NCBI GenBank assembly: GCA_964637115.1
Contig: CAZWVL010000005.1
Coordinates: 1-64,000, forward strand
Origin: an uncultured Methanosarcinales archaeon
GTDB taxonomy: Archaea; Nanobdellota; Nanobdellia; Woesearchaeales; ARS49
Reading direction: 5' to 3'
Length of the DNA: 64,000 nucleotides
Below, piece after piece: positions 58,014 to 64,000 of the stretch (positions within the stretch are counted from its first letter, which is position 1; each line of letters begins with the position of its first letter). The translations under genes and the position numbers were made by a program. The notes beneath the pieces were generated by a model. That model had not been told where the DNA came from and searched no databases. It saw only the letters and a list, made by a program, of their open reading frames with translations.

Positions 58014-58391
58014 ATGGAAAAAATTGGAGTGGCATTGTTGGTTCTTATTGCGGTTGTTGCATTTATCGGTTTGGTAAACCTTGACACGAGCACTGGCCAG
58101 GTCTATTATACTTCTTACCAGTACAAGACTCAGATAGTTACTGGCAACATTCTGAACGCGCCAGCTGGCGAATACGTTTTAGGCGTTGCTGATGGAGTTC
58201 AGGTTGGTATTGGCGAGATTGCTAATGGCCAATATCAGATGACTGTTTCTGGATCTTGGAGAGAGCATTTGGGCATTGATGTTATGATTAACGGCCAGAC
58301 TTATTGCGCAACTATTCCTGTTGCGAGACTTCTTGACCCGAGTCAGATTATGTATGATGGCAGGGTTGCCTTAAGCATTGAGTGCGTGTAA
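58014..58391 (+). CDS. Secreted/membrane-anchored hypothetical protein (paralog family 2 of 3)
   Basis: N-terminal TM; ADGVQVGIG...YQMTVSGSW. Confidence 0.65.
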   Translation: MEKIGVALLVLIAVVAFIGLVNLDTSTGQVYYTSYQYKTQIVTGNILNAPAGEYVLGVADGVQVGIGEIANGQYQMTVSGSWREHLGIDVMINGQTYCATIPVARLLDPSQIMYDGRVALSIECV

Positions 58392-58398
58392 AACAAGT

Positions 58399-58884
58399 AT
58401 GAAGCATGCTATTGCGTTGGCATTGTTGGGATTGATTGCAGCAGTCGCTCTGGTTGGCTTGATTAATCTGGATTCGAAGACTGGTATGCAGTTTATTATC
58501 AGGGGAGATGTTGTGTTGAATGGCGGCATTTACGATCAGGATGGTTATGTTCTCTTTACTAAGCACCAGACGAGGTATCAAAAATTATACAATTCTATTG
58601 TTGCTGTTGCGCCGGATGGCAGGATTGTTGGCACTGGTCCTTTAAGTCCTGGACAGTATCAGCTGACGCTGTATGGTGATTGGAGAAATTATGACACTTT
58701 ATATCTTCAGATTGGATTTTATGATGCTGTAAGGCCTGAAAGAAACACTTTGTATGACTGCGCTCCTTTGAACACAGAGGAACTTCAGGGCAGGGCTGGA
58801 AGGAGGAGCAGTGTGAGAATTCCGATGGACTTGTACTGTAATGCGGAAACTTTGCAGAAAGCGTCGACGTTAAGGTATCGTTAA
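58399..58884 (+). CDS. Secreted/membrane-anchored hypothetical protein (paralog family 3 of 3)
   Basis: N-terminal TM; APDGRIVGTG...YQLTLYGDW. Confidence 0.65.
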   Translation: MKHAIALALLGLIAAVALVGLINLDSKTGMQFIIRGDVVLNGGIYDQDGYVLFTKHQTRYQKLYNSIVAVAPDGRIVGTGPLSPGQYQLTLYGDWRNYDTLYLQIGFYDAVRPERNTLYDCAPLNTEELQGRAGRRSSVRIPMDLYCNAETLQKASTLRYR

Positions 58885-59705: not shown

Positions 59706-60848
59706 TTAGACGAATGCGAGAACTACGTTTGTTATCAATACTGCCAGTATTGCAAAGCTGACTGATTTCCAGATGGTGCTTGCGTGTTTGTGGTGCAGCC
59801 TGCCCTGCAGTGCTGTCAGGAACATTCTGCCGCCGTCAACCGGGCCTAATGGAATCAAATTGAACAATCCTACTCCTAGTGAAAGTAAGTACATCCAGAA
59901 GATTAGGTCTTTGAACCATAGAACAACGTGCGTGGCCCAGGTTGGCGCTTTCAATGGCTGGTCTATGAATACTCCTAGCCAGGCTCTTTTGTTGGTTGGA
60001 TTCTCTCCCAGAGTTATGTCTCTGACAGCATTGGACGTGACTACACTTATAGTGTCTCCTGGTGAAGAATCTTTCAAAGCATTGCTGAAGTCTGCTGTCT
60101 CTCTGATTGCCTGGCCGTTTATCTCGGTTATTTTATCGCCTATTATCATTCCTGCTTGTTGTGCTGGCGGGTTTCCGTCCATTAAGTCTGTTACAACAAC
60201 GCCGTCCTTTGAGTAGAAGGTATTGGTGAAAGGTGTAATGATTGTGAACATCAATAACATTAGCAATAATCCTGTTACGATGTTTGCTACTGGGCCTGCT
60301 GCGTAGACTGCCAGTTGTTTTTTGCGCGATGCTTGCATTAATTTTTTTTCGTCTGGCTCTACAAACGCTCCTGGAATCAATGGAATTAGTGCGCCAAGGA
60401 CAACTAGTCCTGAATTCTTGACCTTTAATCCATAAACGCGTGCCATGACGCCGTGCATTCCTTCGTGTATTATTAGTATGGCAAAAATGCTGATTATCCA
60501 GTAGAAAAAGGGCACGTAGAATACTCCTTTTGCTTTGAATGGCAGAACTACTCCAACAGTCGGCGTTGCAGTGCCGATTAGGATTTGTATGAGAGAGCGT
60601 GCGAGGTCAAATGTTACCAATGCCATTCCGATAAATCCTAAGCCGATTATCCAGGGTGTTGCGATTTCCCAGAAGCGTTTGTATTTTCTGGCAAGCCTGT
60701 CCATTGTGATTATGCCTGCCTGTGTTCTGTACATTGCTGCGTAGAATATGCCCCATCTGTGGAATGAAAGCTTGTGCCTGTTAACATACACGATTAGCGC
60801 AAGAACAATGACAAGGGAAATTGTTGCTGCTGTGTCCACAGAAACCAT
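59706..60848 (-). CDS. Site-2 protease (peptidase M50) with PDZ domain
   Basis: HEGMHG (HExxH), GAFVEPD, AGP, PDZ segment (PAQQAGMIIGDKI), NLIPLGPVDGG. Confidence 0.93.
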   Translation of the reverse strand: MVSVDTAATISLVIVLALIVYVNRHKLSFHRWGIFYAAMYRTQAGIITMDRLARKYKRFWEIATPWIIGLGFIGMALVTFDLARSLIQILIGTATPTVGVVLPFKAKGVFYVPFFYWIISIFAILIIHEGMHGVMARVYGLKVKNSGLVVLGALIPLIPGAFVEPDEKKLMQASRKKQLAVYAAGPVANIVTGLLLMLLMFTIITPFTNTFYSKDGVVVTDLMDGNPPAQQAGMIIGDKITEINGQAIRETADFSNALKDSSPGDTISVVTSNAVRDITLGENPTNKRAWLGVFIDQPLKAPTWATHVVLWFKDLIFWMYLLSLGVGLFNLIPLGPVDGGRMFLTALQGRLHHKHASTIWKSVSFAILAVLITNVVLAFV

Positions 60849-60919: not shown

Positions 60920-61534
60920 TTATTTCAGGTTGTTCTTCTGAATGCAGTATTCTATAAAAGTCAGCATTGGAAGCACAATCACGTTATTTTGATATTTTAT
61001 TACTGCTACAAAATTCTCTCTTGCTGCCACGCTTATGCCGAATTGTATGCCGCCGTGCGGGATGTGCATGTGAACTGGGCTCGAGTCTCTTATTGCCTGC
61101 AGATATTCATCTGCAGTTCGGATATGTGTATGTGTTAGCTTTTCAACTTCTATGATTTCTGGCTGCCATATACCGGCGTGTGCTGTTCTGTAGAGTATCC
61201 GTCTTAATACGCTTTCGGCTTCTGCTTTCTGCAATGGGGTTCCCCCTGTGAAAATGCACATATCATCTTTACCTTGTTTTATTCCTTCCATTCGTGTTCC
61301 AAGCGCTTTTTTTGCAGGGTAGAACTCTTCAATCACTTTGATGTATCCGTCAGTGTATATCCCGTCTTTTATTTCGATACCTTTGCCTATAATTTCGTCT
61401 AATCCTCTTGGGTCTGGTGCAAATTTTACCTCTGGTTGCTTGGGTTTTTCAATTTCTTTTTCCGGGACATCTTTCCCTCTGATGTTGTAATCAATTGGGT
61501 GTTCTGGGTCCGCAAAAGGGTTTTTTGGTGTCAT
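60920..61534 (-). CDS. NPF-DPEHPIDY-leader protein D (unknown 204-aa protein)
   Basis: Starts MTPKNPFADPEHPIDYNIRGKDV; ATGA-coupled to the upstream gene. Confidence 0.8.
   Translation of the reverse strand: MTPKNPFADPEHPIDYNIRGKDVPEKEIEKPKQPEVKFAPDPRGLDEIIGKGIEIKDGIYTDGYIKVIEEFYPAKKALGTRMEGIKQGKDDMCIFTGGTPLQKAEAESVLRRILYRTAHAGIWQPEIIEVEKLTHTHIRTADEYLQAIRDSSPVHMHIPHGGIQFGISVAARENFVAVIKYQNNVIVLPMLTFIEYCIQKNNLK
61466..61534 (-). repeat. Leader repeat copy 4 (69 nt)
   Basis: atgacaccaaaaaacccttttgcggacccagaacacccaattgattacaacatcagagggaaagatgtc. Confidence 0.9.
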
Positions 61535-61839
61535 CTTAATTTATTATTCAGTGAGATGTTTTTATACAATTCAGTGATTTCAAGATTGCTGGTTTTTGTA
61601 ATGTTAAATTTTTCTTTTGTATCGATTATTATTTTGGATAAACAACTTTCAAAATAATCCAAGTGTTTAAAATATTTCATTTTTTCCAAATCAAGTTTTA
61701 CTTTTCCAATTAGACCTTCAAGGAAGGGTTTACTTTCTGGTTTGTTCTGTGGCTTTTCAACTTCGTTAGGAACGTCTTTCCCACAAATTCCATAATCAAT
61801 CGGATGTTCTGGGTCCGCAAATGGGTTTTTCGGAGTCAT
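61531..61839 (-). CDS. NPF-DPEHPIDY-leader protein C (102 aa, AT-rich body)
   Basis: True start MTPKNPF at 61839 (ATGA overlap); the first 19 aa of the listed ORF are the alternative frame of gene B. Confidence 0.7.
   Translation of the reverse strand: MTPKNPFADPEHPIDYGICGKDVPNEVEKPQNKPESKPFLEGLIGKVKLDLEKMKYFKHLDYFESCLSKIIIDTKEKFNITKTSNLEITELYKNISLNNKLR
61771..61839 (-). repeat. Leader repeat copy 3 (69 nt)
   Basis: atgactccgaaaaacccatttgcggacccagaacatccgattgattatggaatttgtgggaaagacgtt. Confidence 0.9.
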
Positions 61840-62591
61840 TTTTTTGTTCGTACCCCACGCGACGCCCTGCTGTCGTAGTAGCCGTAGACGTTGCACATGC
61901 CGTCGAAGTCGGCACGGCCAACAGGCCGCGCAGCACCATCAGGAGGCAAACTCATGCGCGCTTTGAAGTTGCCTTCACGCACCTCTTGTGGCAAATCCTT
62001 GAACTTCCGCCCATAGATGGCTTGAACCAAGTCATCACTGAATTCATCGAGTGGAATCCACGTGTTTGATTTTTTACCTGCAATGTCAAACTCCTGCTTG
62101 TCGACAAATTTGAAAGAGGAATTTTTCACGTACGTATTGCTGTTCCACACCAATCCTTCAGGGTCGAGATATGCGATGAGAATGTTTCCTTTGCGTTCGA
62201 ATGCCATGCTGAACCATTCGCCATAGCTTGATAACATATCGGCATGCATATTTCTGAATGAAGTATCTACGAGCTTTCCCTTTATACCATCCATGATAAG
62301 ACCAAGTGCTTCCTGAGGTCTCGGGTGACGCTCAAAGCCGGGCTCAAGGCCGTCTATGGTCAAGCGAACCAAACTGTTATTGAAATAGAACAACATCTTT
62401 TCTGATGCTCCTTGCTTACGACATGCAAGCGGCTCAAACTCAATACCCTTGTAAGAGGCTGTTACGATTCTGTTTTGCAGTGGAGTTTCAGGTTTTTCTT
62501 TCTCAGCATTTGCAGGTTCCTTCACATCCTTCCCTCTAATATTGTAATCTATCGGATGCTCTGGATCCTCGAATGGGTTTTTCGGAGTCAT
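61836..62591 (-). CDS. NPF-DPEHPIDY-leader protein B; probable CLec-like domain with DGR-type variable region
   Basis: Leader; GEW; C-terminal RPVGR...RASRGVR; 14 of 15 consecutive codons end in C at 61869-61913. Confidence 0.75.
   Translation of the reverse strand: MTPKNPFEDPEHPIDYNIRGKDVKEPANAEKEKPETPLQNRIVTASYKGIEFEPLACRKQGASEKMLFYFNNSLVRLTIDGLEPGFERHPRPQEALGLIMDGIKGKLVDTSFRNMHADMLSSYGEWFSMAFERKGNILIAYLDPEGLVWNSNTYVKNSSFKFVDKQEFDIAGKKSNTWIPLDEFSDDLVQAIYGRKFKDLPQEVREGNFKARMSLPPDGAARPVGRADFDGMCNVYGYYDSRASRGVRTKK
62523..62591 (-). repeat. Leader repeat copy 2 (69 nt)
   Basis: atgactccgaaaaacccattcgaggatccagagcatccgatagattacaatattagagggaaggatgtg. Confidence 0.9.
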
Positions 62592-63382
62592 TTCTTTCCT
62601 CTTGAGATTTTTTGCGCGCGTATGCCGATGGCTGGTCCCAAATAGGTCATATCGGCAGTGGCTTTGATTCTGAACTGGCCAATGCCGGCTTCTCCCATGA
62701 TGACAGCAAGCTCAGTTGTTTCTTGCGGCGTCTTGTCAAGGCGCCAAAGGTACGTGTCGTAACCGCTTATCCAATGATAAACATCATTGATTTCTTCTAG
62801 GTTGTCTGTGCCGAGTATTGCTTTGCAAGCTTTTCTGCCATGCTTGGAGGTTTTCAACCATTCGTCTGGACCTATGATATTCTCGATTAATCTTTCAGTA
62901 GGAAGGTTATGTGCCACGTGATCAGGCGGGCCTATGTGTGCGTAATACGTGACGCTGGAAAGCGTGTACACCACATTCCGGTCAAACGTATCGTGCAGGA
63001 AAGTCCTGACTTTCTCCATCAATCCTTTGTGTTGTGCAACGTCTTTGTTCCGGTAGAGTGCTGTGAACAATGCGTGATACATCGGTGCAGAAACCAGCGC
63101 AAAGACTTTGTCTTTTGCAGCTTTCTTAGAGTAAGCAAGCCAACCGTCGTGATTATACTTCGCGCCTCCCAAAAGAAGCTCTTTGGCAATATCGATAACA
63201 TAAGTGTCGTTCTTGAACGGTACACCGTAAACGCGATATTTCTCAGCGAAGTCCTCAAGGCTGAATACGGAAGATGACGGTGCAGGTTCTCTTTTCTCAA
63301 CCTTTGCCTCCTTCACGTCCTTCCCTCTAATATTGTAATCAATCGGGTGTTCCGGGTCCGCGAAAGGATTGTTTATAGGCAT
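62588..63382 (-). CDS. NPF-DPEHPIDY-leader protein A (264 aa; possible CLec-like C-terminus)
   Basis: MPINNPFADPEHPIDYNIRGKDV; ends LAVIMG...FRIKA...GPAIGIR; overlaps the VWA stop by 10 bp. Confidence 0.8.
   Translation of the reverse strand: MPINNPFADPEHPIDYNIRGKDVKEAKVEKREPAPSSSVFSLEDFAEKYRVYGVPFKNDTYVIDIAKELLLGGAKYNHDGWLAYSKKAAKDKVFALVSAPMYHALFTALYRNKDVAQHKGLMEKVRTFLHDTFDRNVVYTLSSVTYYAHIGPPDHVAHNLPTERLIENIIGPDEWLKTSKHGRKACKAILGTDNLEEINDVYHWISGYDTYLWRLDKTPQETTELAVIMGEAGIGQFRIKATADMTYLGPAIGIRAQKISRGKK
63314..63382 (-). repeat. Leader repeat copy 1 (69 nt)
   Basis: atgcctataaacaatcctttcgcggacccggaacacccgattgattacaatattagagggaaggacgtg. Confidence 0.9.
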
Positions 63383-64000
63383 CTTGCCACCTGTTTGTAC
63401 TTGTCGCTCGCCACTTTTACCATGAGTTTGGCCAAGTCATCATTTTTGCCAACGTAGTAGACTGCCACTCCCCAAGATTCGAGGTCTTCGCTGAACTGGT
63501 TTTTGCCTCCTATTTGTATGTGTGCAGTTGAGCATTGCTGTGCAAGTGTTTTGTAGTCATCTTTGATGCTTTCCCAGTTGCCTATTGCTCCGTCTGATAA
63601 CGTCAGCAAAAATGTTTCTTCTTTCACTCGTTCTTTTAATTTGTTGATGTCGAGTGTTGTTACGCCCCATTGTGGTGTTAACAGAACTTTGTGCGCTTCT
63701 TGTCCGCTTCCTGCAATTGTTTCTGAGCTGAAGTTTACAACTCCTGCATCCACGTATGGTGCTATGTGCTGCTGTTGCAGGTATCTTTCTATGCCGTAGT
63801 ATCCTAAGAGTGCGTAGTGGTATTTGCTTTTGTCTCCCCAGGGAATGAATGCCTTATTTCCGACGTTTTCTGTATTATTAGGAGCCAGTTCCATGCTTCC
63901 GCTGGAGTCTATGACTGCCAGCCTGAAGTTTGGGAATTTCTTGATATTGTGCTTGTATACTTGTTCTGTTTCTATCCAGCCCCTGTTCACCATTAATCCT
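63373..64000 (-). CDS. VWA-domain protein (5'-truncated by the window edge)
   Basis: AVIDSSGSM MIDAS motif (DxSxS), VVNFSSET, LTLSDG, IQIG; frame stays open past 63993 to the window end. Confidence 0.85.
   Translation of the reverse strand, partial: GLMVNRGWIETEQVYKHNIKKFPNFRLAVIDSSGSMELAPNNTENVGNKAFIPWGDKSKYHYALLGYYGIERYLQQQHIAPYVDAGVVNFSSETIAGSGQEAHKVLLTPQWGVTTLDINKLKERVKEETFLLTLSDGAIGNWESIKDDYKTLAQQCSTAHIQIGGKNQFSEDLESWGVAVYYVGKNDDLAKLMVKVASDKYKQVARCL

Follow-up and report, generated by a model that had tools for sequence, protein, structure and literature searches.

In the genome of an uncultured Nanobdellota-like archaeon, eight neighboring genes begin with the same 23-residue peptide joined to different protein bodies, most of which belong to families of variable proteins of diversity-generating retroelements (DGRs), and comparison with related genomes suggests that this peptide is an address label matching them to a putative two-protein, ATP-driven machine encoded in the same operon. 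The stretch of DNA analyzed here (the window) covers the first 64,000 nt of contig CAZWVL010000005.1 (C5) and cuts a 10-gene operon on the minus strand (C5:60920-69406), the order of which is a MoxR-like AAA_5 ATPase, four leader genes (T1-T4), a 562-aa HExxH/VWA(MIDAS) protein, and four further leader genes (T5-T8). The original prediction, that four coupled genes share an N-terminal leader on unrelated bodies, proved correct as an observation, although it understated the array, because four more leader genes lie just beyond the window at C5:65082-68210. All eight leader copies in the 1.27-Mb genome reside in this tightly overlapping operon.

Organization of the operon

The features within the window are as follows, in the order of transcription.

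63373-64000, minus strand: C-terminal VWA domain of the 562-aa HExxH/VWA protein, the gene for which continues beyond the window to C5:65061; the MIDAS motif DSSGS lies at residues 385-389.
62588-63382, minus strand: T5, a leader, a linker and a family B body (264 aa); paralogues T3 and T4 lie outside the window.
63314-63382, minus strand: leader of T5 (MPINNPFADPEHPIDYNIRGKDV).
62630-62719, minus strand: approximate relic of the variable region in T5 (residues about 222-251), inferred only from homology to the variable region of a relative's protein (G032_a).
61836-62591, minus strand: T6, with a leader and a family A body; paralogues T1 and T2 lie outside the window.
62523-62591, minus strand: leader of T6 (MTPKNPFEDPEHPIDYNIRGKDV).
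61863-61922, minus strand: variable-region-like hypervariable patch of T6 (residues 224-243).
61848-61865, minus strand: conserved ASRGVR-coding 3' flank of the variable region, a candidate homing (IMH-like) sequence.
61531-61839, minus strand: T7, a leader, a linker and a roughly 60-aa AT-rich orphan body (102 aa).
61771-61839, minus strand: leader of T7 (MTPKNPFADPEHPIDYGICGKDV).
60920-61534, minus strand: T8, a leader, a linker and an unnamed domain of about 160 aa (204 aa in all), the last gene of the operon.
61466-61534, minus strand: leader of T8 (MTPKNPFADPEHPIDYNIRGKDV).

Each of T5-T8 begins with M-x3-NPFxDPEHPIDYxIxGKDV, in which 17 of 23 positions are invariant among the four, the variable positions being 2, 3, 4, 8, 17 and 19. 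The three junctions between these genes are ATGA overlaps, as had been claimed, whereas the junction between the VWA gene and T5 is a 10-nt overlap and not ATGA. None of the ten proteins has a signal peptide or a hydrophobic stretch, the highest Kyte-Doolittle 19-residue mean being 1.39, and no membrane or secretion component is encoded in the operon. Rfam and tRNA scans of the window were empty.

The leader as a selected and modular peptide

The eight leaders evolve under strong purifying selection. Over codons 2-23 of all eight copies, mean pS is 0.59 and pN is 0.07, a ratio of 0.12, and between T1 and T6, 10 of the 11 leader differences fall at third codon positions, confirming the claim that selection acts on the peptide rather than on the DNA. 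Because synonymous sites are saturated, a leader that is an RNA or DNA element, or an artefact of translational coupling, was rejected. A RiPP-type leader was also rejected, because the bodies are folded domains of 100-260 aa and no modification enzymes are encoded. Pfam and NCBIfam returned no match for the leader or the bodies, and outside this genome the leader type appears only on homologous family A and B proteins from metagenomes. In the T6 model, residues 1-44, that is, the leader and linker, are predicted to be disordered, with pLDDT below 50 for residues 1-9 and 13-44.

The leader sits on four body families. The four bodies within the window show no pairwise BLAST similarity, which was one of the points on which the original prediction could have failed, although T5 and T6 each have two paralogues among the four genes outside it, and a profile-profile comparison of family A against family B aligns only the leader. 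The T8 domain occurs elsewhere without any leader: while a word-index search with the T8 body found nothing, an exhaustive search recovered about 45 clusters matching residues 45-201, mostly stand-alone proteins of 150-190 aa without a leader, none of which has a Pfam family, and one of which, P0019, lies next to EF-1alpha and not in an AAA/VWA operon. In a feature search of the ESM Atlas, all scores for the T8 body were at or below 0.81, which is noise level. The T7 body has a GC content of 23-29%, against 42-47% in the neighboring genes, and no homologue was found among the retrieved loci.

It could be argued that the leader has no function of its own and is a conserved remnant of tandem duplication, or is homogenized by gene conversion among paralogues. 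The operon clearly grew by duplication, given that T1 and T6 are 68% identical, that there are 300-nt repeats at 87% identity, and that the T4/VWA junction is homologous to the T5/T6 junction. However, this reading is disfavored and appears very unlikely, because synonymous sites in the leader are near saturation while the peptide is almost invariant, which excludes recent conversion and demands selection, because the T8 domain family lacks the leader elsewhere, because families A and B share nothing but the leader, and because the same pattern recurs with different leaders in 16 operons.

Variable-protein families of DGRs

The original prediction missed what the bodies are. Families A and B are variable-protein families of DGRs, whose relatives have a reverse transcriptase (RT), a template repeat and adenine-specific variable regions. 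A variable region matching a template repeat with adenine-specific mismatches is found for family A in one relative, G081 (template repeat at L067:11685-11735, L067 being the locus), for family B in a second, G032, and for a third family in G058. The T5 body is 29-30% identical over its full length to G032_a and G032_b, whose C-terminal variable regions match a template repeat next to an RT. For family A, in the hypervariable patch, T1 and T6 are 20% identical, against 72% in the body, and the differences fall at codon positions 1, 2 and 3 as 12, 9 and 5; in T6, 15 of the 20 codons of the patch end in C (NNC), and local GC is about 61%. The patch aligns to the template and variable repeats of G081, and the flank that follows it is equivalent to their invariant 3' end: S244, R245 and G246 are invariant in 15 family A members, and GGCCTCGCGCGG is shared by the template repeat and both variable regions in L067.

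The T6 model has the C-type-lectin fold. The best PDB matches are 5ioo_B, which is AvpA, a nanoarchaeal DGR variable protein, at Z 8.3 with 170 residues aligned, and 5vf4_A (TaqVP) at Z 6.8, followed by many C-type lectins at about Z 4. These matches came only from an exhaustive structure search (VIA), whereas Foldseek against the PDB found nothing for the T6 model, and PDB sequence searches with the VWA and family A profiles gave nothing meaningful; for family B, the fold is inferred rather than modeled. Both AvpA (PDB 5IOO; Handa et al. 2016, PMC5006420) and the T6 body have a C-terminal variable region followed by a conserved G-[VF]-R type motif. No sequence similarity was detected, however, the AvpA motifs GxxVVVYAH, HPxxxPFxG and RFxGV are not seen in families A or B on inspection of the alignment, and no shared N-terminal tag or AAA/VWA partners are described for AvpA in the literature examined.

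In this genome, no complete DGR was found. PF00078 (RVT_1) gives no match in a six-frame search of the assembly, which is 98% complete in 27 contigs, and tblastn with the RTs of two relatives gives nothing below E 0.8, although an RT hidden in an assembly gap cannot be excluded. A repeat search and blastn-short for a template repeat were negative in both the locus and the genome. Nor was archaeal SSU rRNA found in the assembly, so that the assignment to DPANN/Nanobdellota is indirect, resting in part on the taxa of ESM Atlas clusters.

The AAA+/VWA pair

The ATPase matches AAA_5 (PF07728, E 1e-10, above its cutoff), and its Walker A and B motifs can be read as GDTGEGKT and VIDE. The AF2 model of the VWA protein has a pLDDT of 87.7, and its fold matches are 4fx5_A at Z 15.3, NorD-VWA and Rea1-MIDAS. 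The residues of a complete MIDAS site (DxSxS..T..D), D385, S387, S389, T468 and D490, are invariant in 26 homologues. A structure search of the ESM Atlas returned unnamed archaeal VWA proteins.

The N-terminal domain of the same protein carries HExxH, of which H86, E87 and H90, together with N133 and D137, are invariant in the 26 homologues, and the predicted topology of three strands, the HExxH helix and a second helix carrying E136/D137 is compatible with a zincin. Pfam has no hit in any of the 26 members, and the fold searches, made with the whole protein, were filled by matches to the VWA domain. A feature search of the ESM Atlas with the N-terminal domain returned unnamed clusters, with one weak lead to a viral cluster labeled CobT/peptidase at 0.88. 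It is conceivable that the leader is a propeptide, which the HExxH domain would cleave off together with the linker to activate or release the lectin domains, possibly after ATP-dependent unfolding by the AAA+ ring. The substrate-like leader is predicted to be disordered and is followed by an exposed linker, and peptide-processing zincins accompany some MoxR-vWA systems (PMC7159879). On the other hand, no cleavage site is conserved across operon-specific leaders, a zincin fold is not confirmed by these searches, and many effector-position peptidases in MoxR-vWA systems are inactive (PMC7159879). This reading, which overlaps the docking model and does not exclude it, is considered possible but rather unlikely.

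Distribution and operon specificity of the leader

The VWA-zincin family occurs in 48 of 401 sampled genomes of the phylum, and in 16 of 24 neighborhoods examined, 2-15 tandem genes share an operon-specific leader. Orthologous bodies may carry unrelated leaders in different operons: T4 and G012_a, from the relative G012 (leader MKHVHIPTIEELM), are 46% identical in the body but match at only 4 of 20 leader positions. In total, 13 operon pairs have bodies at least 40% identical but leaders at chance level, whereas all six pairs with similar leaders have VWA proteins 31-93% identical, and the closest VWA (that of G310, 59-60%) goes with the closest leader, NPFADPEALIEDGLKVKDV. Leader similarity follows the VWA protein and not the cargo. 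It should be noted that such co-variation is also what simple co-inheritance of an operon would give, that the operons compared are relatives of one another, and that the Spearman correlation of leader with VWA over all 120 pairs is only 0.23. Moreover, leaders of different operons share only a loose pattern, so a single conserved binding mode is not established.

A proposed recognition tag

With regard to interpretation, the original prediction of a common docking or targeting tag that plugs interchangeable domains into one machine is partly supported, its modular part being well supported and physical docking onto the VWA/AAA machine remaining an inference. The explanation we favor, with about even confidence, is that the leader is a disordered N-terminal recognition tag, held on a flexible K/E/P-rich linker, that marks a set of interchangeable proteins as clients of the machine encoded in the same operon. 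In this view, most clients (T1-T6) are C-type-lectin-fold variable proteins of the kind that DGRs hypermutate, probably ligand sensors or binders, and T8 and T7 are other cargo. The anatomy of the operon, selection on the peptide, the modularity of the tag, its co-variation with the VWA protein and the DGR nature of the bodies are established by the analysis, while binding, the binding site and any downstream action are inferred. A complex prediction of the VWA-zincin protein with the leader (ESMFold2, with our own alignments) scored 0.00 and is counted neither way.

The likely mechanism is inferred by analogy with NorQ/NorD, CbbQ/CbbO and Rea1-MIDAS, in which an AAA_5-class motor uses a VWA/MIDAS adaptor that captures clients through an acidic residue (PMC9976466). 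The VWA protein would act as the adaptor on the ATPase ring and capture the tag, most plausibly through one of its invariant acidic residues (D9, E11, D15, D22) completing the MIDAS metal site, or through the zincin groove, after which the ATPase would remodel the bound client or transmit its state. The receptor could equally be the ATPase, the zincin domain or something outside the operon. In Rea1/Midasin, different clients, Ytm1 and Rsa4, share an N-terminal docking module, but this is a folded UBL domain, whereas the docking element proposed here is a disordered peptide of about 23 residues rather than such a domain or a surface patch. By analogy only, the cargo-loading or encapsulation peptides of encapsulins and bacterial microcompartments are likewise short conserved terminal peptides grafted through a flexible linker onto unrelated cargo proteins encoded next to the receiving machine; those peptides, however, are usually amphipathic helices or C-terminal, no shell protein is present here, and the receptor would be an ATPase/VWA machine.

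Alternatively, the leader may be an unconventional export or assembly signal, the tagged proteins being subunits or tips of a surface structure used for host attachment and the AAA+/VWA pair its assembly chaperone, as proposed for p618/p892 of Acidianus two-tailed virus. DGR variable proteins of DPANN archaea have been proposed to mediate cell-cell attachment (PMC6349945, citing Paul et al. 2017, Nat Microbiol 2:17045, the main survey of DPANN DGRs), most cellular DGR targets are surface proteins (PMC8144416), and MoxR-vWA pairs assemble an archaeal virus tail (listed in PMC7159879). Nevertheless, this is thought to be unlikely, given the absence of signal peptides, hydrophobic segments and secretion components noted above, and given that the leader is acidic and proline-rich, unlike class I-III archaeal signal peptides.

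Relation to MoxR-vWA conflict systems and implications

The closest systems described to date are the MoxR-vWA (VMAP-type) ternary conflict systems with DGR-diversified FGS/C-type-lectin sensors (Kaur et al. 2020, PMC7159879; Dore et al. 2024, PMC10907252). As in those systems, a MoxR-like AAA+ ATPase and a vWA protein sit in one operon with C-type-lectin proteins that are DGR targets, and an RT and a template repeat lie next to the homologous operons of at least 10 relatives. In contrast, in the bacterial systems the lectin domain is usually fused to the vWA protein and there are one or a few targets, whereas here 2-15 separate lectin genes each carry an operon-specific N-terminal tag, and the vWA protein carries an HExxH domain. 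No VMAP protein or known effector domain was detected: no operon protein other than the AAA_5 ATPase has a Pfam hit above threshold, bpMoxR scoring E 0.15, below its cutoff. In the view proposed here, a peptide tag would replace the fusion, so that many alternative sensors can share one machine.

More speculatively, a lineage of DPANN archaea (Nanobdellota-like) may use a plug-in receptor system, in which a single MoxR-like AAA+/VWA-zincin machine reads out a library of separately encoded lectin sensors, each addressed to it by a fast-evolving, operon-specific N-terminal peptide that co-evolves with the machine. The library would be diversified either somatically by a DGR (2-4 genes with RT and template repeat) or in the germ line by expansion to 5-15 tagged paralogues once the RT is lost, which would be a prokaryotic parallel to the alternative ways in which immune receptor repertoires are built. 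This remains doubtful on present evidence, but the contrast between RT-linked small arrays and RT-less large arrays could reflect a general trade-off between hypermutation and gene-family expansion. DGR variable proteins are among the most variable proteins known, and an operon-specific tag would give a direct experimental handle on what the variable lectins of DPANN archaea, for which neither partners nor read-out are known, report to. It would extend MoxR-vWA sensor systems from multicellular bacteria to ultra-small episymbiotic archaea and would also define two uncharacterized protein families, the zincin-VWA adaptor and the T8 domain.

A tandem array of genes with a shared N-terminal leader

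On the minus strand, four ORFs that start at 63382, 62591, 61839 and 61534, termed T5, T6, T7 and T8, each begin with M-x3-NPFxDPEHPIDYxIxGKDV, in which 17 of the 23 residues are invariant, and this leader is followed by a K/E/P-rich stretch of about 15-20 residues. The original prediction of four coupled genes that carry a common leader is thus confirmed, although it captured only part of the array, as the window cuts it. A search of the 1.27-Mb genome (G000; 27 contigs, 98% complete) with the first 40 residues found eight copies, all of which lie within positions 60920-68210 of the same contig (C5). The three junctions between T5, T6, T7 and T8 are ATGA overlaps, as predicted, whereas the upstream VWA gene overlaps T5 by 10 nt; in the operon as a whole, nearly every junction is a 4-nt overlap.

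Gene order of the operon on the minus strand of contig C5 (gene, coordinates, length)
AAA ATPase, 68207-69406 (-), 399 aa
T1, 67476-68210 (-), 244 aa
T2, 66691-67479 (-), 262 aa
T3, 65870-66694 (-), 274 aa
T4, 65082-65873 (-), 263 aa
VWA protein, 63373-65061 (-), 562 aa
T5, 62588-63382 (-), 264 aa
T6, 61836-62591 (-), 251 aa
T7, 61531-61839 (-), 102 aa
T8, 60920-61534 (-), 204 aa

Directly downstream of the operon lies a gene at 59706-60848 (- strand) for a 380-aa multi-pass membrane protein with an HEGMH motif, which by eye looks like a site-2/M50-type protease. Further on, at 58014-58391 and 58399-58884 (+ strand), there are two adjacent paralogous small proteins whose N-terminal hydrophobic segments (MEKIGVALLVLIAVVAFIGLVNLD.. 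and MKHAIALALLGLIAAVALVGLINLD..) resemble archaeal pilin-type (class III) signal peptides. The 64-kb window gave no tRNA or Rfam hit, and no archaeal SSU rRNA match was found in the assembly.

Across the eight leader copies, codons 2-23 have a mean pS of 0.59 and a pN of 0.07, a ratio of 0.12. T1 and T6, whose bodies are 72% identical, differ at 11 leader nucleotides, 10 of which are at third codon positions. The peptide is therefore conserved by selection, not by recent gene conversion or a nucleic-acid constraint. In the AlphaFold model of T6, residues 1-44 have pLDDT below 50, as expected for a disordered tag plus linker.

The bodies behind the leader

BLAST groups the bodies into family A (T1, T2 and T6), family B (T3, T4 and T5) and two singletons, T7 and T8. 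A profile-profile comparison of A against B aligns only columns 1-25, which is the leader, and the original claim that the bodies are unrelated holds at the sequence level; however, T5 and T6 each have paralogues just outside the window. A trace of duplication of a B-A module is evident in that the end of T4 plus the start of the VWA gene (C5:65057-65098; L009:7058-7099 in the extracted locus) is homologous over 42 nt, at 83%, to the T5/T6 junction (62587-62628; L009:4588-4629), with a stop codon in T4 cutting off the last roughly 8 codons (..GVRV-stop against ..GIRAQKISRGKK-stop).

Families A and B are variable-protein families of diversity-generating retroelements (DGRs), which use a reverse transcriptase (RT) and a template repeat (TR) to rewrite a variable region (VR) in their target genes, changing the positions that are adenines in the template. 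In relatives, homologues of the VWA protein sit in the same kind of operon, often with an RT. In the relative G058 (locus L024), an RVT_1 gene (E 2.7e-24) is preceded by a 93-nt A-rich TR that matches the C-terminal ends of four tagged genes, with mismatches at template adenines. In G032 (locus L025), the TR next to the RT matches the ends of two family B genes, and in G081 (locus L067), the TR at 11685-11735 matches the ends of two family A genes, its invariant 3' part encoding ASRGVR. T6 and T1 keep exactly this layout: a patch (T6 residues 224-243) is 20% identical between the two, changes there fall at codon positions 1, 2 and 3 as 12, 9 and 5, 15 of 20 codons end in C, and an invariant ASRGVR follows. 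The T6 model matches the nanoarchaeal DGR protein AvpA (5ioo_B, Z 8.3, 170 residues aligned) and TaqVP (5vf4_A, Z 6.8), followed by a long list of C-type lectins at about Z 4. Despite this, the assembly of this genome has no RVT_1 match, no tblastn match to relatives' RTs and no TR; the array is either a DGR whose RT and TR are unassembled, or a fossil.

An exhaustive HMMER search with T8 found about 45 clusters matching residues 45-201, most of which are stand-alone proteins of 150-190 aa in which the match starts near residue 10 and which therefore have no leader; none has a Pfam family. One of them, P0019, lies beside EF-1alpha on a 1.36-Mb contig and not in an AAA/VWA operon. T8 is thus a pre-existing domain onto which the leader was grafted. 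T7, in contrast, has a body of about 60 residues (about 61531-61725) with 23-29% GC, against 42-47% in its neighbours, and no relative was found in the fetched loci. T7, together with T8, sits where relatives have the TR and RT; it could be a young or decaying ORF behind an intact leader.

The ATPase and the VWA protein

The first gene of the operon matches AAA_5 (PF07728, E 1e-10) and has Walker A (GDTGEGKT) and Walker B motifs. The 562-aa protein has no Pfam family, and neither does any of 26 homologues. Its model (pLDDT 87.7) has a C-terminal VWA fold, with matches including 4fx5_A at Z 15.3, NorD-VWA and Rea1-MIDAS. D385-x-S387-x-S389, T468 and D490 are invariant, so the MIDAS site is complete. 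In the N-terminal half, H86-E87-x-x-H90, N133 and D137 are invariant, and the order of three strands, the HExxH helix and a second helix, as predicted in the model of the whole protein rather than of this domain alone, is compatible with a putative zincin.

Operon-specific leaders in related genomes

A profile of the VWA protein found the family in 48 of 401 sampled genomes of the phylum, all within one class. Many of the homologous operons lie at the ends of short contigs of 2-6 kb, consistent with assembly breaks at the repeated leaders or at template and variable repeats, so surveys of metagenome-assembled genomes will undercount these arrays. In 16 of 24 neighbourhoods examined, 2 to about 15 tandem genes around the AAA and VWA genes share an N-terminal leader that is specific to the operon, such as MTNITKPIGKRNRLVSKEEAKAMLERV in about 14-15 copies (genome G361), MPDRFAGFSKDDALRQL in 7-10 copies (G178 and G200), MAKIIGDKGKSxFDPDLAREINEK in 6 copies (G194), MTNALKPIGYGKKILSVEEALKGLEGY in 4 copies (G147), and MKHVHIPTIEELM in 7 copies (G012, of the same genus as the window's genome). 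While leaders within an operon match at 10-20 of 20 positions, those of different operons share only a loose theme, that is, a short Pro/Phe/Gly motif, then acidic residues, then a charged or proline-rich linker.

The leader follows the machine, not the cargo. T4 and a tagged protein of G012 (G012_a) have bodies 46% identical, but their leaders are unrelated and their VWA proteins are 24% identical; likewise, family A bodies in G081 are 50% identical to T6, again with an unrelated leader. In the public protein collection, family A bodies carry at least five leader types. (On one contig of JGI metagenome 3300023219, the sequence downstream of a leader-plus-family-A gene, L010:800-2615, has ORFs that look like mammalian or ruminant interspersed repeats; the contig may be chimeric or the sample host-associated.) Conversely, the closest VWA protein (G310, 59-60% identical) goes with the closest leader, M-x2-YNPFADPEALIEDGLKVKDV. 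Over 16 operons, 13 pairs have bodies at least 40% identical with chance-level leaders, whereas all six pairs with recognisably similar leaders have VWA identities of 31-93%. This is what a tag matched to an operon-encoded receptor would show, but it is also partly what co-inheritance alone would give, and the operons are not independent samples.

The number of tagged genes appears to vary with the presence of an RT. Operons with an adjacent RT (G058, G032, G176, G081, G380, G424 and G109; loci L024, L025, L058, L062, L063, L067 and L073) have 2-4 tagged genes, whereas six genomes with no RT anywhere in their assemblies (loci L009, L059, L060, L065, L068 and L027) have from 5 to about 15.

Tagged genes in six genomes without an RT in the assembly (genome, tagged genes)
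G000, 8
G178, 10
G200, 7
G361, about 14
G272, 5
G012, 7

These counts suggest that gene-array expansion may be an alternative to hypermutation, a possible trade-off, although the sample is small, its members are related, and RTs are often unassembled. In the wider family-level tally, 12 of 40 genomes have an RT match, including one, G428, that is unpublished and on which nothing else here rests.

A proposed role for the leader

MoxR-class hexamers use a VWA adaptor whose MIDAS metal is completed by an acidic residue of the client, as in NorQ/NorD (PMC9976466), CbbQ/CbbO, and Rea1 with the N-terminal UBL domains of Ytm1 and Rsa4. In bacterial MoxR-vWA systems linked to DGRs, the lectin (FGS) sensor is fused to the vWA protein (PMC7159879, PMC10907252). 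In the literature searched, only Dore et al. 2024 mention MoxR, vWA and DPANN together, and Roux et al. 2021 and Wu et al. 2018 do not describe these operons or a shared tag, although prior description in Paul et al. 2017 cannot be excluded.

The original interpretation, a common docking or targeting tag that plugs interchangeable domains into one machine, is partly supported. The array, the selection on its peptide and the correspondence of leader with VWA protein are observed here, whereas docking, which is probable but unproven, and any cleavage are inferred; the single complex prediction gave no verdict and counts neither way. Cleavage by the HExxH domain is a compatible alternative to docking. 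The operon is closest to the MoxR-vWA systems with DGR-type lectin sensors, from which it is distinguished by unfused, peptide-tagged clients in multi-gene arrays, by a VWA adaptor with a putative zincin domain and by an archaeal DPANN host. In the favoured reading, the leader is the non-covalent equivalent of the bacterial fusion: it would be a disordered, acidic docking peptide that lets many alternative lectin sensors, plus T7 and T8, use one AAA+/VWA machine.
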